Source of the DNA: an uncultured Oscillospiraceae bacterium | GTDB taxonomy: Bacteria > Bacillota > Clostridia > Oscillospirales > Oscillospiraceae | DNA: 64,000 bases | Reading direction: 5' to 3' | Assembly: GCA_947632155.1 (NCBI GenBank) | Contig: CANROF010000002.1 | Span: 9,892-73,891, forward strand | Part shown: positions 12,216 through 61,655 of the stretch, piece after piece | Numbering within the stretch: position 1 is the first letter of the stretch | Layout: each line of letters starts with the position of its first letter | Notes under the pieces: model-generated | Seen by the model: the letters and a program-made list of their open reading frames with translations, nothing else | Databases searched by the model: none | What the model was told of the DNA's origin: nothing | Made by a program: the position numbers and the translations under genes

Positions 12216-12226
12216 ATGTTTTTTCA
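12192..12226 (+). terminator. terminator of the toxin mRNA (duplicate hairpin)
   Basis: Same hairpin followed by AATGTTTTTT. Confidence 0.65.
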
Positions 12227-12547
12227 TACTGATCCCTGATTAAAAGCTCATACTAATATTCATTTAAAATAAGGCACCGAGCGGCGAGAATTTTTCGTGT
12301 CAGGCAAGGAAGACGCCGCAGGGAATACTTTGTGTATTCCCAAGGCGGCTGACGCAGCATGGCGCGAAAAAGTCCGCCGCAAATGGCTTATTTTAATTGA
12401 ATATTAGTATCAAACCGAGCGGCGAGGATTTTTCGCGTCAGACGAGGAAGACTGCGCAGGGAATACTTTCGTATTTCCAAGCAGGCTGACGAAGTATGGC
12501 GCGAAAAAGTCCGCCGCGAATTTGAGATTTTGATCAGGGATTAGTAT
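12226..12547 (+). mobile_element. 161-bp foldback MITE, subtype B (ends ATACTGATCCCTGATTAAAA / TTTTGATCAGGGATTAGTAT), split by a nested subtype-A copy
   Basis: 24 nt (12226-12249) plus 137 nt (12411-12547) make 161 nt. This is colinear with the intact B copy at 23269-23429. Confidence 0.8.
12250..12410 (+). mobile_element. 161-bp foldback MITE, subtype A (ends ATACTAATATTCATTTAAAAT / ATTTTAATTGAATATTAGTAT)
   Basis: Near-identical to the copies at 17398, 36105 and 51768. Inserted inside the B copy. Confidence 0.85.
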
Positions 12548-12564
12548 CACCCCTATGGCATCCC

Positions 12565-16348: not shown

Positions 16349-17146
16349 TCAAATCCCGAACCGCCGGTAGAGGTCCGCCACGGACTCCTCGGTGCTCAAA
16401 TTCTCCCCCGCCATGGCGCGGATCTGGGCGGTGGTCCCGTCCAGGAGGAGCCGGCCGCGGCCTATGAGCAGGACCCGGGAGCACAGGGCCTCCACGTCCT
16501 GCATGTCGTGGGTGGTGAGGATGACGGTGGTACCGCAGAGCCTGTTCTGCTCCAGGATGAACTCCCGGACCTTCAGCTTGCTGACGGCGTCGAGGCCGAT
16601 GGTGGGCTCGTCCAGAAAAAGCACCTCCGGCGAGTGGAGCAGCGCCGCGGCGATCTCGCAACGCATCCGCTGGCCCAGGGACAGCATCCGGGCCGGGGTC
16701 CTGAGAAGGTCCCCCAGGTCCAGAAGCTCCGTGAGGCGCTCTTTATTCTCCCGGAACCGCCCCTCCGGCACGCGGTAGATGTCCCGAAGGAGCTCCATGG
16801 AATCCGCCACCGGCACGTCCCACCAGAGCTGGCTGCGCTGTCCGAAGACCACGCCAAGGCGCGCCACGTGCCTTTTCCGGTCCTCCCAGGGCACAAGGCC
16901 GTTCACCCGGCACTCCCCGCAGTCGGGCCGGAGGATGCCGGAGAGTATCTTGACGGTGGTGCTCTTCCCCGCCCCGTTGGGGCCGATATAGCCCACGATC
17001 TGGCCGTCCGGGACGGTGAAGGTCATGTCCCGCAGGGCGGGGATCTCCGTATAGCTTCGGGAGAAAAGGCTTTTTACCGCGTTCCCCAGGCCCGCCTCCC
17101 GCCGCCGGACCCGGTATGTCTTGCTGACACCTCGCATTTCGATCAT
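16349..17146 (-). CDS. ABC transporter ATP-binding protein
   Basis: Start moved to ATG 17146 (RBS AAAGGAG 7 nt upstream). Walker A GPNGAGKST, signature LSLGQRMR, Walker B VLFLDEPT. Confidence 0.9.
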   Translation of the reverse strand: MIEMRGVSKTYRVRRREAGLGNAVKSLFSRSYTEIPALRDMTFTVPDGQIVGYIGPNGAGKSTTVKILSGILRPDCGECRVNGLVPWEDRKRHVARLGVVFGQRSQLWWDVPVADSMELLRDIYRVPEGRFRENKERLTELLDLGDLLRTPARMLSLGQRMRCEIAAALLHSPEVLFLDEPTIGLDAVSKLKVREFILEQNRLCGTTVILTTHDMQDVEALCSRVLLIGRGRLLLDGTTAQIRAMAGENLSTEESVADLYRRFGI

Positions 17147-17325
17147 ATTGTTCGCTCCTTTTCTGAAATGGCCCGCCCCGGTCATGTCAGCGGAAGGCAT
17201 TGGGGACCTTCATGACGTTAAGGAGTGCGGGAAATATTTCATCAGGAACAGCGCGGGCGGCAACGACCCCCTCCCGCGCAAGACAAAATATCCTCTCCCC
17301 GCCCGAGAGGGCGAAAAGGAAGTTA

Positions 17326-17355
17326 ATTTTACACCGCCTCACGGCCCGGTGTCAA
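17326..17355 (-). promoter_or_regulatory. promoter of the ABC-2 transporter operon
   Basis: TTGACA, 18 nt, then TAAAAT on the minus strand, about 180 nt upstream of the ATPase start. Confidence 0.55.
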
Positions 17356-17397
17356 GTTTTTTTGTGAAAACCGACAAAAATCCCGGGCAAAACGTTT

Positions 17398-17558
17398 ATA
17401 CTAATATTCATTTAAAATGAGACACCGAGCGGCGAGGATTTTTCGTGTCAGGCAAGGAAGACGCCGCAGGGAATACTTTGTGTATTCCCAAGGCGGCTGA
17501 CGCGGCATGGCGCGAAAAAGACCGGCGCGAATGGCTTATTTTAATTGAATATTAGTAT
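17398..17558 (+). mobile_element. 161-bp foldback MITE, subtype A
   Basis: Terminal inverted repeats plus a shared core (CCGAGCGGCGAGGATTTTTCGTGTCAGGCAAGGAAGACGCCGCAGGGAATAC...). Confidence 0.85.
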
Positions 17559-17597
17559 TACACAGAATAAACATTGGGCGTAGTAGGACAGGGTCGC

Positions 17598-23209: not shown

Positions 23210-23268
23210 AATGGATCCTCCCTAAAATAAATTGTGTCCGCGGCGCATTCGGCGCCGGCTTTGATTTT

Positions 23269-23429
23269 ATACTAATCCCTAATCAAAAACTCCAATTCGC
23301 GACGGTCTTTTTTGCGCCATGCTTCGTCAGACGGCTTGACAATACATACAGTATTCTCTGCGCCGTCTTCCTCGCCTGACGCAAAAAATCCTCGCCGCTC
23401 GGTTGGCGTTTTTAATCAGGGATTAGTAT
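23269..23429 (-). mobile_element. 161-bp foldback MITE, subtype B (reverse orientation)
   Basis: Ends ATACTAATCCCTAATCAAAA / TTTTAATCAGGGATTAGTAT. The core matches the family in reverse complement. Its last base is part of the LCP stop codon. Confidence 0.85.
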
Positions 23430-24655
23430 TAACCGTAGACCTTCAATACGCCGCTGGTGGCGTAGAGGTCCCCGTCGGAGTCCCGGGTCACCATGTCGAA
23501 GTTCTCCGCGGTCAGGTCCTGATCGAAGGGGTTCAAATACTCGTTCACCATCTCCAGCCACTCCTCAAACTTCACGGTGGCGTAGGAGCCGCCGAAGGCG
23601 TAGTCGTTGTAGTTGCCCGGCATGGTGTAAAAGTGGATGTCGTCAAAATTGAGCTTCAAAAGCTCCTTGGCAAACCACCCGCACTCCCCCATGTTCAGGC
23701 TGGTCCTGACGTCGGTCATGAAGATGTTGACAAGGGTGGTGATGGGGACGCTGTCCACATTGTCCAAAAGCTGCTTTGCCGTGGTGGAAAGGAAGCTCTG
23801 CTGGGCGTGGATGCGGCCGATGTCCTGCTCGTCGTAGCCCTGGCGGAAGCGCATGTACTCCATGGCCTCCTGGCCGTACATGTGGGTCCAGCCCTCGGTG
23901 AAGTGGATGTACAGGTCCTGGGCCGGGTCGTCGTAGTCCATGTCCTGGGGAACGTAGTAGTCCACGCCGCCGATGGCGTTGATGAGGTCGATAAAGGCGT
24001 TCAGATTGATGATCCCGTAAAAATCCGGCTGGAAGCCCAGGACATCCGCGAAGCCCTGGAGGAAGCTCTCCCGCCCCATGAAGTTATAGAGCGTATTGAT
24101 CTTCTTCACGCTCCAGGAGACGTTGACCAGGGTATCCCGGGGGATGCTCACCACGTTGAGGCTGTAGTCGTTGGTGTCGAAGCGCGCGATCATGATGGTG
24201 TCCGTGCTGCCGGAGATCCTGTCCGTGCCCAGGGCCAGGAACGTATAGACGCCGTCCACGCGCTGGGGTCCCTGGGGGACCGGGCCGGGGTCGTCGGGGC
24301 CCGGGTCGTCAGTCTTGCCGGGGTCGTCGTGCCCCGGGTCCTCGGTCTTGCCCGGGTCGTCCTTGCCGGGATCCTCGCTGCCGCCCGGGTCCTCCCCGCC
24401 GGGGACGGTCACGCCGCCGGCGGGGTTATTGGGCGTCTGGGTGACATCCGGGGGCTTTATCTGGGTCTTGACGAATATGACCACGGCCAGTGCCAGCGTC
24501 GCCAGGACCGCCAGCACGGCGATAAGCGCCTTTTGCAGGCCCGAGAGCCCGGACTTCTTTTTCTTTGGATGCCCGTTATGCCCGCTCCCCTGCTTCGGGG
24601 CGGGGCTGTGGGCGCCGGAGTGCTTTGATTTTTTTGTGCTGCCGAATATCTTCAT
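23429..24655 (-). CDS. LCP (LytR-CpsA-Psr) family protein
   Basis: N-terminal TM anchor, then a Pro/Asp-rich linker. LCP core FLALGTDRISGSTDTIMIARFD..VVSIPRDT. Confidence 0.88.
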   Translation of the reverse strand: MKIFGSTKKSKHSGAHSPAPKQGSGHNGHPKKKKSGLSGLQKALIAVLAVLATLALAVVIFVKTQIKPPDVTQTPNNPAGGVTVPGGEDPGGSEDPGKDDPGKTEDPGHDDPGKTDDPGPDDPGPVPQGPQRVDGVYTFLALGTDRISGSTDTIMIARFDTNDYSLNVVSIPRDTLVNVSWSVKKINTLYNFMGRESFLQGFADVLGFQPDFYGIINLNAFIDLINAIGGVDYYVPQDMDYDDPAQDLYIHFTEGWTHMYGQEAMEYMRFRQGYDEQDIGRIHAQQSFLSTTAKQLLDNVDSVPITTLVNIFMTDVRTSLNMGECGWFAKELLKLNFDDIHFYTMPGNYNDYAFGGSYATVKFEEWLEMVNEYLNPFDQDLTAENFDMVTRDSDGDLYATSGVLKVYG

Positions 24656-24709
24656 GTTACAACCTTACCTCTTGCGATGAAAAGCGCGGGTTATCTCTAT
24701 GTTTCTGTC

Positions 24710-26566
24710 TCAGGCGTCCTCTCCGCCCGTCCCGTCTCCGCCGGGGGCGGCCTCGCCGGAATCGCCGGATGCGTCGCCGCCCTCCGCCGGGGCGTCGCTT
24801 TCAGCGGGATTCTCGCTCTCGGTGGGATTCTCATCCTCAGTGGGATTCTCGCTCTCGGTGGGAGTCTCATCCTCAGCGGGATTCTCGCCCTCGGCGGGAG
24901 TCTCACCCTCAACGGGAGTCTCACTCTCGGCGGGAGTCTCACCCTCAACGGGAGTCTCACCCTCGGCGGGAGTCTCACCCTCAACGGGAGTCTCGCCCTC
25001 AGTGGGAGTCTCACCCTCGGCGGGATTCTCACCCTCGGCGGGAGTCTCACCCTCAGTGGGAGTCTCACCCTCAGTGGGAGTCTCACCCTCGGCGGGATTC
25101 TCACCCTCGGCGGGAGTCTCACCTTCACCGGGGGCCTCCCCCTCACCGGGAGTTTCGCTCTCGCCGGGGTCGGGCTGCGGCTCCGGCTCCGGTTCAGGCT
25201 CGGGTTCAGGCTCAGGCTCCGGCGGGACGTAGGCGCCCCAGGAGGCGTTGCCGCGCCTCACGCCGCTGGTGGCGTAGAGGTTCCCGCTGCCGTCCCGGGT
25301 AAGGATGTCAAGGTTCGCCACGGTCAGGTCCTCGTTAAAGGGGTTGATGGCCTCGTTGATCATCTCCAGCCACTGATTTACGTAGATCGTGACGTAGCTG
25401 CCGCCGTACACCGAGTCATAGTAGTTGGCGGGGAGGGTGTAAAAGTGGATGTTGTCGTAATTGAGCTTCAAAAGCTCCTTGGCAAACCAGGTACACTCGC
25501 CCAGATCCAGGCTCGTCCTCACGTCGTTCATGACGATGTCCACGATGGTGGAGATGGGCACGCTGTCGCGCTTATCCAATATCTGCTTGATGGCGGCGCC
25601 CAGGAAGTTCTGCTGGGCGTGGACACGGGCGATGTCGCCCTCCACGTACTGCCGGTAGCGCACATACTCCATAGCCTTCTGGCCGTCCATGTGCTGCATC
25701 CCGGCGGAGAAATGGATGTGGAGATTCTGGGCCGGGTCGTCGTAGCTCATGTTCCGGGGGACCTCAAAGTCCACACCGCCGATGGCGTCGATGAGCTCCA
25801 TAAAGGCGCTGATGTTCACGATGCCGTAAAAATCCGGCTGGAAGCCCAGGACGTTGGCGTAGGCCTGGAGGAAGCTGGAGTCGTCCTTGCTGCTGTAGAG
25901 GTAGTTATAGAGGGAATTTATCTTCTTGACGCTCCAGGATACATTCACCAGGGTATCCCGGGGGATGTTCACGATATTGAGGCTCCCGTCGTTCACGTCG
26001 AGGCGCGCGATCATGATGGTGTCCGTGTTGCCGGAGATCTTGTCCGTGGCCAGGGCCAAAAACGTGTATACGCCCTCGCGTCTTGTGTAATTCGTGGGGG
26101 GCTCGGTATCCACCACCAGGTCCGGGTCCTCGGGGGGCTCCTCCGGGGGCTCCGGGGTATCGGGCGTGTCGGGCACGTCGGGCGTATCGGGTCTGTCCGG
26201 GGGCGTTTCGGGCTCTACGGGCGTCTGCGGGACGGGGTCCACGTTTTGGCTGGGGATATTGGGGGTCACCACCACCGGGGGCGGCTTCACCTGGGTCTTG
26301 ATGAACACCAGCACCGCCGCGGCGATGGCTATGAGCACTGCAAGGACGACGATCACGATCTTCCATGTCCTTGTGAGCTTTACGCCCCGGACGCGCCTTA
26401 TAAGCTTTTGCACAGGTCCGGTCTTTTCCTCCGCGGCGGGCGCGGCGGGCTTTTCCTCCCCGGCGGCCTCCGCGGGGCTCTCCCCGCCCTCCGGGGCGGC
26501 TTCAACGCCTGTCTCGCCGGCCTTTTCCGAATGCTTTGGCTCCTTCGAGCTTCCGAAAAATTTCAT
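24710..26566 (-). CDS. LCP family protein with long acidic ETPxEG-repeat C-terminal tail
   Basis: Paralogue of the downstream LCP gene (FLALATDKISGNTDTIMIARLD..IVNIPRDT). The C-terminus carries (PE)n plus about 20 hexapeptide repeats. Confidence 0.85.
   Translation of the reverse strand: MKFFGSSKEPKHSEKAGETGVEAAPEGGESPAEAAGEEKPAAPAAEEKTGPVQKLIRRVRGVKLTRTWKIVIVVLAVLIAIAAAVLVFIKTQVKPPPVVVTPNIPSQNVDPVPQTPVEPETPPDRPDTPDVPDTPDTPEPPEEPPEDPDLVVDTEPPTNYTRREGVYTFLALATDKISGNTDTIMIARLDVNDGSLNIVNIPRDTLVNVSWSVKKINSLYNYLYSSKDDSSFLQAYANVLGFQPDFYGIVNISAFMELIDAIGGVDFEVPRNMSYDDPAQNLHIHFSAGMQHMDGQKAMEYVRYRQYVEGDIARVHAQQNFLGAAIKQILDKRDSVPISTIVDIVMNDVRTSLDLGECTWFAKELLKLNYDNIHFYTLPANYYDSVYGGSYVTIYVNQWLEMINEAINPFNEDLTVANLDILTRDGSGNLYATSGVRRGNASWGAYVPPEPEPEPEPEPEPEPQPDPGESETPGEGEAPGEGETPAEGENPAEGETPTEGETPTEGETPAEGENPAEGETPTEGETPVEGETPAEGETPVEGETPAESETPVEGETPAEGENPAEDETPTESENPTEDENPTESENPAESDAPAEGGDASGDSGEAAPGGDGTGGEDA
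24790..25225. repeat. in-frame 18-nt tandem repeats (ETPxEG hexapeptides) plus a (PE)n tract inside the LCP gene
   Basis: GGGAGTCTCACCCTC(A/G)(A/G/C)(C/T)-type units are visibly iterated about 20 times. Confidence 0.9.
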
Positions 26567-33289: not shown

Positions 33290-33476
33290 TGGCTCGAAAG
33301 CCCGCTGGGCTTTCGATGCCAAGGGGAACGTGCGGAAACCCTCTCTCGAATTCTGCGGAATTCGAGAGAGGGTTTCCTGCTGTTTTGCTCCGCGCACGGC
33401 CCGCAGGGCCGAACACTCCGCAAAACAAAAGGGATTTTTCGCGAGGCAGAGCCCCGCGAAAAATATTGAATTTGAG
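33290..33476 (+). repeat. family-C modular intergenic repeat, copy 1 (four hairpin modules joined by conserved linkers)
   Basis: Linkers CAAGGGGAACGTGCGG, CCTGCTGT, ACAAAAGGGATTTTT and AAAAATATTGAATTTGAG are shared with copies 2 and 3. Perfect 17-bp hairpin at 33336-33376. Confidence 0.8.
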
Positions 33477-36005: not shown

Positions 36006-36104
36006 AAGTCGGTGTTCAACGGATTTTCTTCAAAAAAACATTGTTTTATTGGAACGTGTTCAAAATTGCAGAAACCCTGCCGCTCGCGGAGCCAAAACGG
36101 TCTT

Positions 36105-36265
36105 ATACTAATATCCATTTAAAAGAAGACACCGAGCGGCGAGGATTTTTTGTGTCAGGCAAGGAAGACGCCGCAGGGAATACTTTGTGTATTCCCAAGG
36201 CGGCTGACGCCGCATGGCGCAAAAAAGGCCGTCGCGAATGTCTTATTTTAATTGGATATTAGTAT
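36105..36265 (+). mobile_element. 161-bp foldback MITE, subtype A variant
   Basis: Ends ATACTAATATCCATTTAAAAG / ATTTTAATTGGATATTAGTAT. Its last base is part of the radical-SAM gene stop codon. Confidence 0.85.
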
Positions 36266-37275
36266 TACCCCTCCACCCGCTCCACGGCCATGTCCGGCAT
36301 GTCGCGCTCTGTGAATTTTACGGTTTTCAGGGCGTATTCGCGTTTCAGCGTCTCTGCGTTTGCGCGTTTTTGGCCGGTGGCGGCGGAGGTGCGGCCACGG
36401 TTGACGGCGAAGAGGACGTCCGCTCCCCTGTCGGCCTCCGTCAAAAGGGCGCGCTCCCGGGCGAGGTAGCGCCTTGAGAGGACGAGCTCGCCCAATGCCG
36501 GGTGGTAGGCCCCGCCCGCGGCGTCGCCGCGGGAGAGGTCCTCCGTGGGGTTGAGGCCCAGGCGGACGATGGGGATGCGGGCCTTATCAAAAATCTCGGA
36601 TATTTCGGCGCACAGCTCCACCGCGTCCTCCACGGTGTGTTCCCGGTAGAGGCCCGCCCGCCACATGTCGTACAGCGGCGTGTCCCGGATGATCACCGTG
36701 GGGTACACCCGCACGCCGTCGGGGCGGAGCTCCGTAAATTTCCGGGCGGTGGCCAGGCTCTTTTCCGGCGTGTCCCCGGGAAGGCCCGTCATCATCTGCA
36801 ATATGAGCTCAAAGCCGGCGCCCTTAACCTCCCTGGCGGCCCGCTCCGCGTCCTCCGGCGTGTGGCCCCGCTGGGAGAGGCGCAGTACCGCCCGGTCCAT
36901 GGACTGGACGCCCAGCTCCACGGTGCGCACGCCGTAATACCTGAGCCGCTCTAACGTCTCCCGGTCGATGGCGTCCGGGCGGGTGGAGAGGCGTATGTCC
37001 CGGATGGAGCCGTCCAGTAAAAAGGGCCGGGCGGCGGCCAGAAGCGCCTCCTGCTCCCCCGCCGGGATGGCGGTGAAGCTGCCGCCGTAAAAAGCCAGGG
37101 TCGCCCCTGTCCCCTCCGGGAGACGGGCGCGGCCCTCTGTGATGGCTTTTTTCACGTCCTCGGGCGTCGCCGGGGACTGCTCGCCGGATATGCGCCGCTG
37201 GTTGCAGAATACGCACAGGTGCGGGCACCCGAGATGGGGCACGAAGACGGGGATGATGCTCCGCCGGGGCGTCAT
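36265..37275 (-). CDS. radical SAM protein (ELP3-like family)
   Basis: CxxxCxxC motif CPHLCVFCNQ near the N-terminus. ATGA overlap with rnc. Confidence 0.82.
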   Translation of the reverse strand: MTPRRSIIPVFVPHLGCPHLCVFCNQRRISGEQSPATPEDVKKAITEGRARLPEGTGATLAFYGGSFTAIPAGEQEALLAAARPFLLDGSIRDIRLSTRPDAIDRETLERLRYYGVRTVELGVQSMDRAVLRLSQRGHTPEDAERAAREVKGAGFELILQMMTGLPGDTPEKSLATARKFTELRPDGVRVYPTVIIRDTPLYDMWRAGLYREHTVEDAVELCAEISEIFDKARIPIVRLGLNPTEDLSRGDAAGGAYHPALGELVLSRRYLARERALLTEADRGADVLFAVNRGRTSAATGQKRANAETLKREYALKTVKFTERDMPDMAVERVEG

Positions 37276-40298: not shown

Positions 40299-42592
40299 TT
40301 CTTCTCTCCCCCGGGGGCCTTGGCGGAGGTCTTTTTGGCCGCCGGCTTTTTCGTCTCTGTCTTTTTGGCCTCTGTCTTTTGGGCCGCAGGTTTTTTCGTC
40401 GCGGGCTTCTTCGCGGCCGGTTTGGGGGCGGCCTCGGCCTCTGTACCGGCCTGTGGCGTCCCGTCCTGTTCCGCCTTATCCGCGCTCCTGCGGCGGTAGC
40501 CCCGCTGGTCCTCCGGGACGAAGCGGGAGCAGTTTTCGTTGATGCAGAAGGGCTTATTGAAGCCCCTGCCGGATTTTTTGAAGAGGGTGTGGCCGCACTC
40601 CGGGCAGTTGTCCTTCACCGGCACGTCCCAGGTCATAAAGCCGCACTCCCGGCGCTCGCAGGCGTAGTAGGTGTAGCCGTTTTTGCTGGTGCGCTTCAGG
40701 ATCCGCGAGCCGCACTTCGGGCACTTCCCCGGCATCTCCACCACGATGGGCATGGTGAACTTGCACTCGGGATACCCCGGGCACGCTAAAAAACGCCCGA
40801 AGCGTCCGGATTTCACCACCAGCTTCCGCCCGCACTCGGGGCAGATCTCGTTTGTCTCCTCGTCGGGGATGTGGATGCGCTCCCCCGCCAGGGCCTTCTC
40901 GGCGCTCTCCAGGGACGCCTCAAAGCCGCCGTAGAAATCGGAGAGCACCTGCTTCCAGGGCCGCTCGCCCTTCTCAACGCTGTCCAGCGTGGCCTCCATG
41001 TTGGCGGTGAAGCCCGGGGAGACGATGTCGGCAAAGCGCTCCTTCATGAGCTTCGTCACCACCTCGCCAAGAGGCGTGGGGCGCAGGTTTTTCCCGTCCT
41101 TCACCACATATTCCCGGTCTAAAATGGTGGAGACGGTGGGGGCGTAGGTGGAGGGCCGGCCGATGCCCGTCTCCTCCATCTCGCGAATCAGCGTGGCCTC
41201 GGTATAGCGGGCCGGGGGCTGGGTGAATTTTTGCTCTTTAATGAGGTCGATGAGCTCCACCCGCTCACCCTCGCTCAATACCGGCAGCGCCGTCTGGCGC
41301 TGGTCGTCCTCCTCGTCCCGGCCCTCCTCGTAGACGGCGGTGAAGCCGGGGAATTTGACGGCGGAGTACCCGGAGCGGAAGATGTGCCCGGCGGACACCA
41401 GGTCCATGGTGACGCTGTCGTAGACGGCGGCGGCCATCTGGCTGGCGATGAAGCGGTTCCAGATGAGCTTGTAGAGCCTGTACTGCTCCGGCTGGAGGCT
41501 CTGGCGCACCATCTCCGGCGTCAGGGACGGGACGGAGGGGCGTATGGCCTCGTGGGCGTCCTGGGCGGAGTTTTTGTTTTTGAATCTCCTGGGGGACCCG
41601 GCGTAATATTCGTCGCCGTATCTGGCCTTGATAAGCCCGCCGGCGGCGAAAAGGGCCTCGTCCGACAGGCGCAGGGAGTCCGTGCGCATATAGGTGATAA
41701 GGCCCACGGCGCCCTCGCCCTCGATGTCCACGCCCTCGTAAAGCTGCTGGGCCACGGCCATGGTGCGGCGGGGCGTCATGCCCAGCCTCCGGCTGGCGTC
41801 CTGCTGGAGGGTGGAGGTGATGAAGGGCGGCGCCGGGGAGCGCCGGGCGTCCTTGCGCTTGACGCTTTCAACGACAAACGGCGCCCCGCGGACGGCGGAC
41901 TCCACCCGCGCCACATCCCCGGCGTTTTTGAGTTCCGCCTTTTTGCCGTTGAAGCCGTAATATTTGGCCGTGAAGCTCTGGCCGGAGGCGTGACGGAGCT
42001 TGGCCTCCAAATTCCAGTATTCCTCCGGGACGAAGGCCCGGATCTCCTCCTCCCGGTCCACCACGAGCCTGGTGGCCACGGACTGGACGCGGCCGGCGGA
42101 GAGCCCGTAGCGCAGCTTCGTCCACAGAAGCGGCGAGAGCTTGTAGCCCACGATGCGGTCCAGGATCCTCCGGGCCTGCTGGGCGTCCACTAAGTCCTGG
42201 TCGATGGCCCGAGGCTTTCGGATCTCCTCGTTGACCACGCGCTTTGTTATCTCGTTGAACGTGACGCGGTAGACCTCGTCGTCGGGGATGTGCAGGAGCT
42301 CCTTGAGGTGCCAGCTTATGGCCTCCCCCTCCCGGTCCGGGTCGGTGGCCAGATACACGCGCTTTGCGGCCTTGGCCTCCCGCTCCAGCTCCCGGATAGT
42401 CTCCTCCCGGCCCTTCACGGGCTGGTAGTCGGGGATGAAGCCGCCCTCGATGTCCACGCCCATGGTGGACTTGGGCAGGTCCCGCAGGTGTCCCATGGAC
42501 GCCGTCACCCTGTAGTCGGGCCCCAGGTACTTGCCGATGGTCTTGGCCTTCGCCGGGGACTCAACGATAACGAGATTAGTTGCCTTTGCCAT
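40295..42592 (-). CDS. topA: DNA topoisomerase I with Lys/Ala-rich C-terminal tail
   Basis: Toprim LVIVESPAKAKTIGKYLG, C-terminal Cys4 zinc ribbons, then the AAKKPATKKPAAQK... tail. Confidence 0.95.
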   Translation of the reverse strand: MAKATNLVIVESPAKAKTIGKYLGPDYRVTASMGHLRDLPKSTMGVDIEGGFIPDYQPVKGREETIRELEREAKAAKRVYLATDPDREGEAISWHLKELLHIPDDEVYRVTFNEITKRVVNEEIRKPRAIDQDLVDAQQARRILDRIVGYKLSPLLWTKLRYGLSAGRVQSVATRLVVDREEEIRAFVPEEYWNLEAKLRHASGQSFTAKYYGFNGKKAELKNAGDVARVESAVRGAPFVVESVKRKDARRSPAPPFITSTLQQDASRRLGMTPRRTMAVAQQLYEGVDIEGEGAVGLITYMRTDSLRLSDEALFAAGGLIKARYGDEYYAGSPRRFKNKNSAQDAHEAIRPSVPSLTPEMVRQSLQPEQYRLYKLIWNRFIASQMAAAVYDSVTMDLVSAGHIFRSGYSAVKFPGFTAVYEEGRDEEDDQRQTALPVLSEGERVELIDLIKEQKFTQPPARYTEATLIREMEETGIGRPSTYAPTVSTILDREYVVKDGKNLRPTPLGEVVTKLMKERFADIVSPGFTANMEATLDSVEKGERPWKQVLSDFYGGFEASLESAEKALAGERIHIPDEETNEICPECGRKLVVKSGRFGRFLACPGYPECKFTMPIVVEMPGKCPKCGSRILKRTSKNGYTYYACERRECGFMTWDVPVKDNCPECGHTLFKKSGRGFNKPFCINENCSRFVPEDQRGYRRRSADKAEQDGTPQAGTEAEAAPKPAAKKPATKKPAAQKTEAKKTETKKPAAKKTSAKAPGGEKK

Positions 42593-42624: not shown

Positions 42625-42657
42625 GAAAAAGCGCGGTTATTTTAATTGGATATTAGT
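42625..42657 (+). mobile_element. MITE subtype-A right-end remnant
   Basis: GAAAAAGCGCGGTTATTTTAATTGGATATTAGT. The TTATTTTAATTGGATATTAGT part is identical to the right end of the 36105 copy. Confidence 0.65.
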
Positions 42658-43925
42658 TTGAAGTGCGGCTCGAAGAACTTTCCGGGCTTCTGGACCACGC
42701 AGCCGGAGATCTCCAGCATCGTCAGGGCCGACATCACCGCCATGGAGGGCAGTCCCGTCTTTACGGTTATGTCGTCGATGTGCATCGTCCTGTCCAGTGC
42801 CCCTAAGACCGCCCGCTCGTCCAGGGTCAGCGTCTCCGGGTCCACTAATATGTCAATATAAACCGGGTCCTCCCCGTTGTCAATGCCTTTTTTTGATTCG
42901 TTATGGGCGCTTATGTCATTTTTTACCGTTTCCCTCGCCGGGGCGGGCCTCCTGGCCCGGCGTTTCCCGGCGGCGGACATCTCCGACTCCACCAGCGTCT
43001 CCCGGGCCTCGCTGTCAAGGCCCCGGAGCTTCAGCCCCTCCCCGCCGCGAAGCCTCTCGGGGTAGAGGTCCAGGTACTGCTCCACGATGTCAAGGCCGGA
43101 CATCACGGGGATGGCGCCCTCCTTCAAAAGCGCGTTGGAGCCGCGGCACGACTCGGCGTCCACGTTGCCGGGGATGACGAAAACGTCCCGGCCCTGCTCC
43201 AGGGCCAGCGACGCCGTTATCAGCGCGCCGGAGCGCTCCGGGGCCTCGATGAGCGTCACCCCCAGGGAGATGCCGGAGAGTATCCGGTTGCGCACCGGGA
43301 AATTTGCCGCCGCCGGGGGCGTGCCCGGGGTGAACTCCGTGATGAGGGCCCCCGTGGCGGCCACGTCGTCGAACAGCCGCTCATTGGATCTGGGATAGAC
43401 CACGTCGAGCCCGGAGCCCAGAACGCCGATGACCCGGCCCCCGGCCCGGAGAGCCCCCCGGACGGCGGCGGAGTCGATGCCCCGGGCCATGCCGGTGACG
43501 ATGACGGCCCCGGCCCTGGCGGCCTCGTAGCTCACCCGCTCCGCCGTCACCAGCCCGTAGGGCGTGCAGCTCCGGGTGCCCACGATGGCCACCGGCGCCT
43601 CGTCCCCCAGGTCCGGCAGACGCCCCCGGACATAGAGCAGCACCGGCGGGTCGAATATGTTCCGGAGCCTGGCGGGGTACAGGGCGTCGCCCAGCGTCAC
43701 GATGCTCCAGCCGTTGTCGGCGCACATGCTCAGTATCTCCCGGGCGGCGGACATGCCCTTATCCAGAAGCGGCTCATACCCCGAGGCCATGACGGCCTTG
43801 TAGTCCGCCTCCCCGGCGAAATAGATGTTCTCCGGCGAGCCGAAGTGCTCCAAAAGCGCCAGGATGTCCGTCCGGGGTATCCCCCGCCGCAGGGACAGCC
43901 ACAGCCAGTATTTCAGCTCCGACAC
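42642..43925 (-). CDS. dprA: DNA-processing protein DprA (Smf)
   Basis: Rossmann-like core VIVTGMARGIDSAAVRGAL and a C-terminal winged-helix-like extension. GTG start is tentative. The last 5 codons and the stop lie in a MITE remnant. Confidence 0.85.
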   Translation of the reverse strand: MSELKYWLWLSLRRGIPRTDILALLEHFGSPENIYFAGEADYKAVMASGYEPLLDKGMSAAREILSMCADNGWSIVTLGDALYPARLRNIFDPPVLLYVRGRLPDLGDEAPVAIVGTRSCTPYGLVTAERVSYEAARAGAVIVTGMARGIDSAAVRGALRAGGRVIGVLGSGLDVVYPRSNERLFDDVAATGALITEFTPGTPPAAANFPVRNRILSGISLGVTLIEAPERSGALITASLALEQGRDVFVIPGNVDAESCRGSNALLKEGAIPVMSGLDIVEQYLDLYPERLRGGEGLKLRGLDSEARETLVESEMSAAGKRRARRPAPARETVKNDISAHNESKKGIDNGEDPVYIDILVDPETLTLDERAVLGALDRTMHIDDITVKTGLPSMAVMSALTMLEISGCVVQKPGKFFEPHFKLISN

Positions 43926-48548: not shown

Positions 48549-48739
48549 CTCAATTTCAATATTTTTTCCAAGGACATGCGCCTTGGAAAAAATTCCTTTT
48601 GTTTTGCGGAGTGTGCGGCCCTACGGGCCGTGCGCGGAGCAAAACAGCAGGGAAGTTTTCGCTGAATTTCGCAAAATTCAGCGAAAATTTTCCGCACGTT
48701 CCCCTTGTCGGAAAAAGGCCAAAGGCCTTTTTTCGACAG
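48549..48739 (-). repeat. family-C modular intergenic repeat, copy 2
   Basis: The reverse complement aligns module-by-module with copy 1. Stems H1, H2 (lower part) and H3 differ but remain paired. Confidence 0.8.
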
Positions 48740-51715: not shown

Positions 51716-52072
51716 CCAAATTCAATATTTTTTGCGGGGCTCTGCCTCGCAAAAAATCCCTTTTATCATACTAATATCCAATTAAAATAAGACATTCGCG
51801 CCGGCCTTTTTCGCGCCATGCGGCGTCAGCCGCCTTGGGAATACATACAGTATTCCCTGCGGCGTCTTCCTTGCCTGACACGAAAAATTCTCGCCGCTCG
51901 GTGTCTCATTTTAAATGGATATTAGTATCAAATCCGGTGTGCCCGGCCCCTGCGGGGCCGGACGCGCCGGATTTGACAGCAGAAAGGCCCGGACCGAATT
52001 CCGCAGAATTCGATCCGGGCCTTCCGCACGCATCCCCTTGGCATTTGAAGCCCCGCAAAGCGGGGCTTCAAA
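51716..52072 (-). repeat. family-C modular intergenic repeat, copy 3, interrupted by a MITE (51768-51928)
   Basis: 51929-52072 carries modules H1, H2 and H4; 51716-51767 carries the linker, H3 and the terminal TATTGAATTTGGG. Confidence 0.78.
51768..51928 (-). mobile_element. 161-bp foldback MITE, subtype A (reverse orientation), inserted into a family-C repeat
   Basis: The core is present in reverse complement. The flanks on either side are the two halves of family-C copy 3. Confidence 0.85.
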
Positions 52073-52079
52073 GCCAGAA

Positions 52080-53726
<1,647 letters not shown>

Positions 53727-59090: not shown

Positions 59091-61655
59091 TCACCGCCAG
59101 CCCTTTTCGCTCATGTAATCGGTGATGATCTTGAGGTTTTGCGTCTCGGTGCCGTTGAAAAGGGATCTCACGAAGCCCGCGTCGTTGGAGACGGGCACAT
59201 ACCAGTCCTGGGACCTGAAGTAGTCCGAGAGGGCCTTGTCGCCGAAGATATAGCCGTGGCGGGCGTAGATCTCGTTGAGCATGAGCTCCAGCTCCCCGGC
59301 GTCGCGGCCTTCCAGGTCCGCTTCGGTGAGGAGGACCTGGTCGGTGTCAAAAATGTATCCGCTGCCGGTGCTCTCCGGGGGCGTCTCGGTTTCCGGGGGT
59401 GTCTCCGGCTCCGGAGGGTTCTGCGTCTCCGGGGGTGTCTCCGGCTCCGGAGGGTTCTGCGTCTCAGGCGGGGTTTCCGTCTCCGGAGGCGTCTGGGCGC
59501 CGGAGGACGTGCCGCCGCCGCGCCAGCCCATCTCCTGCTGGTAGAGCACTAAGGTGTTGATGTTCCTCCGCTCCACGTCGTTGAAGAGGTCGTAGATATG
59601 GGCGTTCACCGTGGGGTCCGGCTTGTACCAGCCCTGGGCGGTAAAGTAGGTCCACTCCTCCCCGCCCTCCTTAAAGGTGTAGCCGTGGCGGGCGTAGATC
59701 TCGTTGATCATCATATAGGAGGTGCCGGCGTCCACGCCCTCCAGGTCCTCCCGGGTCATGAGGACGGTGTCCGAGGGGAAGAGGAACGTGCCCTGGCTCT
59801 CCCCGCCGTTCCCGCCGGGCTCGTCGCCGCTCTGGGTGCCGCCGGCGCGCCAGCCCATCTCCTGCTGATAGGCCACCAGCGTCAGGACGTTCTTCTGCTC
59901 CAGGTCCGTAAACGCCGCGGCCACGGCGTTGATGTCCCGGGTCGTGGGCTCATACCACTTCTGGGAGTTGAAGTAGTCCTGGATGGGCCCGCCGGAGGTG
60001 GAGAAGATGTAGCCGTGGCGGGCGTAGATCTCGTTGATCATCATGTAGGAGGTGTCGGCGTCCACGCCCTCCAGGTCCTCCCGGGTCATGAGAACGGTGT
60101 CCGAGGGGAAGAGGACGTCGTTGTTGACGGCCTCCGGCCGTGTGGAGGCGCCGGGTTCGTCCGTGCCCGTACCGGGTTCGTCGGTGCCGGGAGTGTCCGT
60201 GCCCGTACCGGGGCCGTCCGTACCCGTTCCGGGGTCATCCGTGCCGGGAGCGTCCGTACCCGTTCCGGGGTCATCCGTGCCGGGAGCGTCCGTACCCGTG
60301 CCCGGGTCGTCCGTGCCGGGGCCGTCGGTGCCCGTACCGGGTTCGTCCGTGCCGGGGCCGCCCGTGCCGGGACCTTCGCTGCCGGTGCCGGGATCATCGG
60401 AGCCCGTGCCGGGGTCCTCGGTGCCGCCGGGGTTCGTGGTCTGGCTGGGGGCGGCGCCGCCGGGCTCGGTCGTGCTCGAGTTGGGGTCCTTGTCCCGGGG
60501 CAGCCACAAGAGCAGCACCGCCGCCAGGCACAAAAGCACCGCGATGATGGCGATGATGATGCCGGCCCGGGACTTTTTCTCCGTCTCCTTCCGGTGCTTG
60601 CCCGGACCCGGCGCCGCGCCGGAGCTGCCGGCCGGTTTGGCGGCGGGTTTGGCGGCGGGCTTGGCGGCGGGCCTGTCCCCGGCTTTGGCGGCGGGCTTTG
60701 CCGCGGGCCGGGAGCCGGACCTGGCGGGATTTGCGCCGCCGGTCATGGCGGCGCCGCCGTTTTGCTTCACGGCGTCGAAGGCCGCCGCGGCGGCCATGGC
60801 CCGGCGGGCTGTCCGGGCGCCCATGGGCAGCTTCTCCAGCTCCGCCTTCATCTGGGCGGCGCTCCTGTACCGCTCCTCGGGGTCGGCGGCCATGGCCTTT
60901 TTTATAACGGCGGCAAAGGCCGGGTCGATGCCCCGGATGAGGCCCGGGTCCCGGTTCTGGGGCATGGAGCAGCCCCCCGCCACATAGCACATCAGCGCCC
61001 CCAGGGAGTAAATATCCGTCTGGGCGGTGTATTTTTTGTCGTCCCCGGTGAGCTCCGGCGCCTCATAGTCGTCGTCCTCCGCGCCGAATATGTTGCTCCC
61101 GGCCCGCTCCAGGCAGCGCCGCAGGGCGTAATCCGACAGCACAAAGCCCCCTGCGTCCGTGACCATCACGTTGCCGGGCTTTATGTCGCCGTGGACCATG
61201 TCATATTGGCCCAGGACCTCCAGCGCCGCGGAGAGCTCCAGCCCCAGGCGCACGGCATCCTCTTGGGTGGAGCCGGCCTTGCCGAAATACGTGGCCATGG
61301 GGGTGTAGATGCCGGTGCGGATGTACCCCGTCCAGCCGGGCCCCTGGTTGTCCACCGTCACCAGGTCCTCAACGGGCGCCAGGGCCGGGGACCTGGCGGT
61401 CTTGTACATGGTCAGCTCCCAGGTGAGGTCGTTTTTGAACTTCCCGAAATAGGTGGTCAGCAGGTCCCGGCCGATGCCCAGCTTCACCGCGTTGTCTATG
61501 GCCTCCCGGGCGGGCGGGGTCTTGATGACCTTCAGCGCCGAAAAGGCGCCGCTCTCCGTATTGCGGATGAGGTACACGGTGCCGAAGGTCCCGGACCCCA
61601 GCACCCCCTCCGTCTCCCATCCGGGCAGGATCTTGTTCAGGTCAAAATCGCTCAT
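59091..61655 (-). CDS. Ser/Thr protein kinase with TM, Pro/Thr/Gly-rich linkers and three C-terminal YARHG modules
   Basis: Start at ATG 61655 (AAGGAGG upstream). Kinase motifs GSGTFGTVY, ALKVIK, HGDIKPGNVMV and YEAPE. INEIYARHGY-type motif occurs three times (twice as INEIYARHGY, once as LNEIYARHGY). Confidence 0.85.
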   Translation of the reverse strand: MSDFDLNKILPGWETEGVLGSGTFGTVYLIRNTESGAFSALKVIKTPPAREAIDNAVKLGIGRDLLTTYFGKFKNDLTWELTMYKTARSPALAPVEDLVTVDNQGPGWTGYIRTGIYTPMATYFGKAGSTQEDAVRLGLELSAALEVLGQYDMVHGDIKPGNVMVTDAGGFVLSDYALRRCLERAGSNIFGAEDDDYEAPELTGDDKKYTAQTDIYSLGALMCYVAGGCSMPQNRDPGLIRGIDPAFAAVIKKAMAADPEERYRSAAQMKAELEKLPMGARTARRAMAAAAAFDAVKQNGGAAMTGGANPARSGSRPAAKPAAKAGDRPAAKPAAKPAAKPAGSSGAAPGPGKHRKETEKKSRAGIIIAIIAVLLCLAAVLLLWLPRDKDPNSSTTEPGGAAPSQTTNPGGTEDPGTGSDDPGTGSEGPGTGGPGTDEPGTGTDGPGTDDPGTGTDAPGTDDPGTGTDAPGTDDPGTGTDGPGTGTDTPGTDEPGTGTDEPGASTRPEAVNNDVLFPSDTVLMTREDLEGVDADTSYMMINEIYARHGYIFSTSGGPIQDYFNSQKWYEPTTRDINAVAAAFTDLEQKNVLTLVAYQQEMGWRAGGTQSGDEPGGNGGESQGTFLFPSDTVLMTREDLEGVDAGTSYMMINEIYARHGYTFKEGGEEWTYFTAQGWYKPDPTVNAHIYDLFNDVERRNINTLVLYQQEMGWRGGGTSSGAQTPPETETPPETQNPPEPETPPETQNPPEPETPPETETPPESTGSGYIFDTDQVLLTEADLEGRDAGELELMLNEIYARHGYIFGDKALSDYFRSQDWYVPVSNDAGFVRSLFNGTETQNLKIITDYMSEKGWR
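59395..59466. repeat. 36-nt tandem duplication (x2, 1 mismatch) inside the kinase gene (PETQNPPEPETP)
   Basis: 59395-59430 and 59431-59466 differ only in the last base. Confidence 0.9.
60140..60420. repeat. in-frame tandem repeats encoding DDPGTGTDAPGT-type linker in the kinase gene
   Basis: Iterated CCGTACCCGTTCCGGGGTCATCCGTGCCGGGAGCGT-like units. Confidence 0.85.

Follow-up and report, generated by a model that had tools for sequence, protein, structure and literature searches.

The 161-bp repeats scattered over the window, that is, over the whole 64-kb stretch of DNA analysed, are copies of a mobile miniature transposon (MITE). They had been proposed in the initial annotation to be a non-autonomous transposable element, which agrees with their sharp ends, terminal inverted repeats (TIRs) of ca. 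20 bp, a 3-bp target duplication, two nested insertions, and sites that are empty in related species. The element proper is 159 bp long and is probably, with good confidence, moved in trans by an enzyme of the IS5/PIF-Harbinger type; one step of the process would involve a folded single strand.

The window lies on contig C2 of a 2.5-Mb genome (89 contigs, 64% GC). Six 161-bp units and a right-end remnant are found there at each of the positions given in the initial annotation, the remnant reaching slightly further (Table 1); their ends are sharp, with the similarity breaking off abruptly. The units start with ATACTAAT and finish with ATTAGTAT, while the element proper runs from TACTAAT to ATTAGTA. 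Two subtypes are distinguished, subtype A with AT-rich ends (ATACTAATATYCATTTAAAAT) and subtype B with ATACTAATCCCTGATTAAAA ends (ATACTAATCCCTGATTAAAAA in the uninterrupted copy of the window), and the left and right ends co-vary between them. A 23-nt probe derived from the core had six matches in the window vs. none in 100 shuffled sequences. Units are present on both strands and all are intergenic, as annotated, amid housekeeping genes coding for a MATE protein, an ABC ATPase, a GltD-like oxidoreductase, RsfS, a LytR-CpsA-Psr (LCP) protein, an ECF sigma factor, a radical SAM protein, Rpe, and GroEL; the window contains no transposase gene, also in keeping with the annotation. The element is non-coding, its sole reading frame comprising 27 Arg-rich codons with an ATG not conserved between the subtypes.

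Table 1. Positions of the MITE copies in the window, of long forms and standalone modules elsewhere in the genome (contig:positions), and termini of sister elements from other genera. Copies in the window are referred to in the text by the first position of the repeat unit.
Feature	Location	Strand	Repeat unit	Element proper or ends	Target duplication	Remarks
Subtype-B copy split by nested subtype-A copy	12224-12549	+	12226-12547	12227-12546	TCA (12224-12226, 12547-12549)	
Nested subtype-A copy	12248-12412	+	12250-12410	12251-12409	TCA (12248-12250, 12410-12412)	
Subtype-A copy	17396-17560	+	17398-17558	17399-17557	TTA (17396-17398, 17558-17560)	
Subtype-B copy	23267-23431	-	23269-23429	23270-23428	TTA (right, 23429-23431)	
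Subtype-A copy	36103-36267	+	36105-36265	36106-36264	TTA (right, 36265-36267)	
Subtype-A right end, truncated	42625-42659	+		..TTATTTTAATTGGATATTAGTTT		directly upstream of minus-strand gene starting at 42592
Subtype-A copy	51766-51930	-	51768-51928	51769-51927	TCA	
Long forms	C5:71419-71676, C10:14522-14779, C10:27476-27736, C15:5733-5993, C24:4534-4793, C25:13960-14217					own genome, outside the window
Standalone module	C7:55275-55376, C9:25129-25208, C17:40972-41076, C24:20620-20696, C50:18446-18525, C54:8868-8945, C59:7030-7091					own genome
Sister element	G222			TAGGCTGTGTCATCTAAAGG	CTAG	
Sister element	G182			GGCATTACCGCATCATTC	TTAA / TCAA / TAAG	160 bp, ~22 copies
Sister element	G097			GGTGGGAAGACTTGAACATGG	CTTG	~290 bp
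Sister element	G311			GGCGGCGGGAGCCGAAC	TTAA-like	~290 bp

Empty orthologous sites testify directly to the mobility of the element. Six related species (G002, G011, G015, G014, G006, and G005) have no insertion at the site occupied by copy 23269; in them, the joined flanks align without gaps and the spacing between rsfS and the LCP gene is only ca. 45-60 bp. A relative, G001, carries an insertion of its own in the leader of the ABC-ATPase gene that adjoins copy 17398, at a different TAA and with a TAA duplication, and G014, G002, and G006 are empty at that position. The leader itself (17270-17360, upstream of the ABC-ATPase gene at 16349-17200 on the minus strand) is kept across species of the genus; its sequence comprises ..CCTCTCCCCGCC..GGGCGAAAAGGAAG.. 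and then GTCAAG, and orthologous leaders are found in loci L126-L129.

The target duplication was reckoned with the first A and the last T of the 161-bp unit counted as flank. The arrangement TNA-159 bp-TNA is perfect in 49 of the 66 complete copies in the genome, the duplicated triplet being TTA in 21, TCA in 11, TAA in nine, and TGA in eight. A T is found two positions before the unit in 63/66 copies and an A two positions after it in the same number, and the bases directly flanking the unit are equal on both sides in 54/66. The TA duplication considered in the initial annotation is therefore replaced by a 3-bp TNA one that includes the middle base, as is confirmed by two independent nested insertions of subtype A into subtype B, one in the window (12248-12412) and the other at C8:352-673, situated at different positions of the host copy: removal of 159 + 3 bp (162 bp) from either nest gives a subtype-B copy in register with the intact ones. 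The preferred target is TT-TNA-AA, with a T-rich and an A-rich shoulder.

Whatever its middle base, a TNA triplet reads as the stop codon TAA or TGA on one of the two strands, and insertions therefore often hit a stop codon exactly and regenerate it. In 15/66 copies the duplicated triplet is at the same time the stop codon that ends a flanking gene, whereas the share of such sites among intergenic TNA triplets is 4.85% (p = 5e-7, based on rough gene calls). Copies of this kind in the window are 23269, whose right TTA is the stop codon of the LCP gene (23429-24655, minus strand), and 36105, whose right TTA is that of the radical-SAM gene (36265-37275, minus strand); the former is also inserted into the T-tail that follows a small terminator hairpin (23241-23257) beside rsfS. 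Insertions that regenerate the stop codon are harmless.

The family extends far beyond the window. BLAST and end-pair scans revealed ca. 90 loci in the genome, ca. 25 of them truncated ends; the 66 complete copies comprise 48 of 159-162 bp, 14 long forms of 258-261 bp, and four deletion forms of 79-113 bp. It is present in 18 of the 25 sampled species of the genus, mostly in at least 20 copies, and the public records with an exact match to the core are MAGs from rabbit gut under the label "uncultured Oscillospiraceae". The family is probably one reason why these MAGs break into many contigs, several of which start within a copy. A recent amplification, as had been assumed, applies to subtype B, whose mean identity of 98.1% and 11 identical pairs indicate a recent burst; subtype A, with a mean identity of 94.7%, is older. 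In the relative G017, additional size classes of the same MITE, of ca. 280 and ca. 319 bp, are found (e.g., at C1:55949-56267, C6:2142-2460, and C9:7525-7843 of that genome), suggesting that internal modules were gained step by step.

Duplication of a constant 3 bp at a symmetric target is what a DDE transposase leaves behind when its cuts are staggered by 3 nt. Among these enzymes, it is the PIF/Harbinger-IS5 superfamily for which 3-bp target duplications, TNA among them, are characteristic; 4-bp YTAR duplications occur there as well (PMC4482050). Judging from the TNA duplication, the enzyme moving the element would be a DDE transposase of the IS5/PIF-Harbinger type, supplied in trans. A search for a transposase carrier with TACTAAT ends gave none in the MITE's own genome, in G017, G002, and G182, at ca. 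100 loci, or in plasmid, phage, and viral collections; all the genomes are draft MAGs, in which such an absence is weak evidence. Multi-copy IS elements are often missing from draft MAGs.

Several candidates were rejected. The PF01609 (DDE_Tnp_1) genes of the own genome belong to two unrelated IS families, one with GGGGCTGTGAAAAAAAG ends and the other with CACGGCAACAGCATTTAC ends and a duplication of ca. 10 bp, while PF13586 (DDE_Tnp_1_2) had no match there. IS5-family elements of the relatives have different ends, GGGCGTATCTGAAAA in G007 and GAGTCTGTTTTAAAACC in G182. Solo ends considered as IS ends proved to be truncated MITE copies, and long TIR pairs in the relatives' loci turned out to be two MITEs bracketing ordinary genes, such as those for aquaporin and glutamine synthetase. 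Full end scans of G017, G002, and G182 gave MITE-sized pairs only, the forms in the first two being of 159, ca. 260, ca. 280, and ca. 319 bp. The plasmid and phage collections contained a single weak core match, in the Vescimonas fastidiosa chromid, and the viral contigs five single end matches, which is about the chance expectation; no recurring neighbour gene was seen near cores at 18 loci. PF13586 genes are over-represented among the genomes with the core, which occurs in nine of 15 PF13586-positive genomes vs. 76 of 286 others (p = 0.014); in most core-positive genomes no such gene was seen.

The IS with GGGGCTGTGAAAAAAAG ends (DDE_Tnp_1) is itself multi-copy; one copy (C3:79568-80303) lies ca. 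20 bp from a MITE copy (C3:79387-79548), and others are found at the ends of C1, C35, C59, C41, C10, and C65, so that it breaks several contigs. This IS may target hairpins.

The foldback of the whole unit, noticed in the initial annotation, is borne out by its folding as RNA into one long hairpin of -77.4 kcal/mol (z = -10.2). The two strands are not equivalent in this respect: the top strand (TACTAAT..CCGAGCGGCGAGG) gives -77.4 kcal/mol as RNA and -44.1 kcal/mol as DNA vs. -57.6 and -31.8 kcal/mol, respectively, for its complement. The same asymmetry is seen in the variation of the paired positions, which in 101 distinct short copies of the genus comprise 5503 Watson-Crick, 281 G:T, and 16 A:C combinations. 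Among variants shared by at least three copies, 13 pair positions have G:T and not one has A:C (p = 2.4e-4), whereas those found in one or two copies are symmetric (13 G:T vs. 16 A:C cells); the former are inherited from a source still copying and the latter represent post-insertion decay. Double changes pass through G:T in every case (AT to GT to GC; CG to TG to TA). Cores from the whole bacterial order show the same tendency (165 G:T vs. 20 A:C), the figure being partly biased by the covariance model, which picks the orientation. The asymmetry reaches the very termini of the element. It is accompanied by no bias in the orientation of insertion relative to flanking genes in tandem (17 copies in the same direction, 23 in the opposite one), the G-rich strand (20 vs. 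24), or the majority gene strand (20 vs. 30).

Covariation this strong, tolerating G:U but not A:C, could also be a sign of selection acting on RNA, with the repeats being a multiplied structured ncRNA gene or a cis-acting RNA element (a terminator, a stabiliser, or an RNase III site). The conservation of the internal-loop nucleotides and the apex across 52 genera fits such a function, as does the succession of an A-tract, a GC-rich hairpin, and a T-tract, resembling a two-way terminator, together with the location of many copies at 3' ends of genes; the sigma-70/terminator scan applied is blind to the long hairpin. Owing to the random orientation, however, read-through RNA would contain the wrong strand half the time, and selection at the resting site through such RNA or through the direction of replication is symmetric and cannot yield the asymmetry. 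A transcript started internally offers no explanation either, since it would exclude the termini, to which the asymmetry extends. In Rfam 15 there was no match at the gathering score in the window and nothing meaningful at E<=10 for five long-form loci, and the target duplications and empty sites denote insertion of DNA. RNA-level selection as the origin of the family is thus improbable, while an RNA role arising as a side-effect of the MITE, that of a hairpin terminator or an RNase III site, is possible.

Strand-specific pairing over the full length would likewise be accounted for by retro-mobilisation, in which the folded transcript of the top strand would be copied into DNA by reverse transcription and then inserted. 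Against it, the fixed 3-bp duplication at TT-TNA-AA and the exact inverted termini mark a DDE transposase rather than any of the known bacterial retroelements, poly-A and variable duplications are absent, and the neighbours include no reverse transcriptase, which makes such an origin highly improbable. On the simplest reading, one defined strand, folded end to end, would be required for copying or moving the element. Standard DDE cut-and-paste transposition involves double-stranded ends and does not predict strand-specific tolerance of wobble pairs along a whole element.

The chromid of V. fastidiosa carries, as a single copy in that record, a foldback element with the same central ca. 60 nt and different ends, TACCATCGGTTGACAAGGGCAAACA. 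A covariance model of the 110-nt core, searched against 301 genomes of 152 genera of the bacterial order, matched in 85 genomes and 52 genera, with full-length matches scoring 50-75 bits and usually multi-copy. The sister elements, whose ends were defined by aligning copies within single genomes, are complete foldback units with sharp ends unrelated to TACTAAT (Table 1). The presence of two end types on one core, described initially for the window, thus holds and is far exceeded in other genera, where the core carries five or more end types unrelated to one another. The duplications of the sister families (CTAG, TTAA/YTAR-like, and CTTG) are all of the IS5 type. Pairing holds in 94% of cells of an alignment of 55 distinct cores, compared with 66.7% after shuffling and 41-47% with slid partners, and 33 of 35 core pairs show compensatory change on both sides, a number matched by none of 500 shuffles. 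Conserved in sequence are the apex, AATACT..GTATT, and the sides of the internal loop, C.AAGG.A and T.ACG.AG. Within larger composite elements of some genera, cores occur in head-to-head pairs with 7 nt between them (L143, L144, and L152, from G105, G027, and G122, respectively, and G051:C1:60646-60870).

A hairpin kept by compensatory change in a strand-specific manner, with no transposase linked in cis, would also suit a REPIN-like element, a hairpin-forming repeat mobilised in single-stranded form by a domesticated HUH transposase (Y1, RAYT/IS200-like) present once per genome, and the own genome does contain one weak Y1_Tnp-like gene. Y1 enzymes, however, leave no target duplication, in disagreement with the perfect TNA duplications counted above; the occurrence of Y1_Tnp is independent of that of the core (26 genomes with both vs. 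26.5 expected), the high-copy genomes G017, G027, and G004 are devoid of it, and insertion is unbiased relative to GC skew or gene strand. It is hard to credit, on these grounds, that the family belongs to this class. The Y1_Tnp-like gene (C30:31872-32096) is a 288-aa ORF with a weak, partial IS200/RAYT-like domain, lying 1.2 kb from a subtype-B copy; it is also present in G114 and is absent from G017 and G004.

The favoured explanation, a MITE dependent on an IS5/PIF-Harbinger-type enzyme, would operate as follows. The 159-bp non-coding DNA transposon with 20-bp TIRs inserts at T-N-A, preferably within TT-TNA-AA, and duplicates these 3 bp, the 3-nt staggered cuts at a target of the IS5/PIF-Harbinger type being made by a DDE transposase that would be supplied in trans; where the target is a stop codon, the stop is restored and the insertion does no harm. 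The full-length hairpin is built around the 110-nt core conserved in the order, and the spreading lineages keep one particular strand paired, as expected if one folded single strand of the element were required at some step of mobilisation. Against this explanation stand the negative search for an autonomous element with TACTAAT ends, the strand-specific tolerance of wobble pairs, and the conserved core under changing ends, a feature unlike that of an IS deletion derivative. A bolder reading, considered rather unlikely, takes the structured single strand itself to be the mobile unit, as opposed to just two ends bound by a transposase. The core, persisting in at least 52 genera, would have been re-armed repeatedly with termini suited to different IS5-type transposases, and it would spread only where one defined strand folds on itself over its whole length. 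This would mean a duplication-making DDE-type transposon with a folded single strand as its substrate or obligatory intermediate. Folded single-strand substrates are known for HUH transposons, integron attC sites, and the CTX phage, but, to our knowledge, not so far for MITEs with target duplications.

Among known repeats, the Correia elements of Neisseria (CREE/NEMIS) come close in being foldback MITEs with several end subtypes and short and long internal variants, intergenic, often located at gene ends, and without an identified transposase. They are ca. 100-160 bp long, with TIRs of ca. 25 bp, and are present in about a hundred or more copies per 2-Mb genome. They differ, by description rather than by sequence comparison, in duplicating TA instead of TNA and in the unrelated phylum of the host, and in the family described here the core is common to an order under different ends and the pairing is strand-asymmetric, for neither of which do we know of a report concerning Correia elements. 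RNase III processing has been described for Correia elements (PMC10969869). The IS5 family and PIF-Harbinger (PHIS) elements with their MITEs (e.g., Tourist) share with the present family the 3-bp TNA/TWA and 4-bp YTAR/CTAG duplications (PMC4482050) and symmetric AT-rich insertion targets; what sets the family apart is a full-length hairpin in place of two unrelated IS ends, and no element with matching TIRs was found. The resemblance to REPINs and RAYTs lies in non-autonomous hairpin repeats with compensatory pairing and an enzyme acting in trans. REPINs depend on a Y1 HUH enzyme and have no target duplication, unlike the present family with its TNA duplication and lack of association with Y1_Tnp. 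ERIC/IRU, RUP, and BOX repeats are also small intergenic imperfect palindromes, often co-transcribed; they occur in other taxa and have TA or unclear duplications, a distinction again drawn from descriptions and not from sequence, and we know of none with an order-wide structured core under swapped ends.

Literature searches gave no description of this MITE family, which, as far as they reach, is undescribed, and MITEs of gut Clostridia in general are almost undescribed. Here a single family accounts for a visible part of the intergenic sequence throughout a genus, with its ends placed on stop codons and terminators. Of wider interest are a core that outlives its ends across an order and clean population-genetic evidence that only G:T mismatches, never A:C, are passed on; together they make it testable whether a folded single strand is used by some of the transposons that duplicate their target. 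The family may serve as a strain-tracking marker, and its copies as natural hairpin insertions at gene ends for studies of termination and mRNA stability.

The long forms of the MITE differ from the short ones by an additional GC-rich module of ca. 100 nt in the 3' arm (GGGGYCCCC...GCGACGACG), comprising two hairpins that differ between copies by compensatory changes and having no match in Rfam. The module is also found on its own (Table 1), in frame within an ORF on C7 and between tRNA genes on C50. On C24 it follows lepA and is itself followed by a second copy of the last 22 codons of lepA with synonymous differences only, while on C9 it lies within a hairpin of a copy of a second hairpin-repeat family. 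The latter family is represented in the window at 33290-33476, 48561-48730, and 51717-51765 + 51931-52080, with conserved linkers and with stems that differ yet stay paired, and the last of these copies is the one in which MITE copy 51768 is lodged. Several layers of small hairpin repeats thus insert into one another. The window contains in addition two long tandem arrays, at 24700-25220 and 60150-60720, with periods of 18 nt and 12-36 nt, within large ORFs, which probably correspond to repetitive low-complexity regions of proteins.
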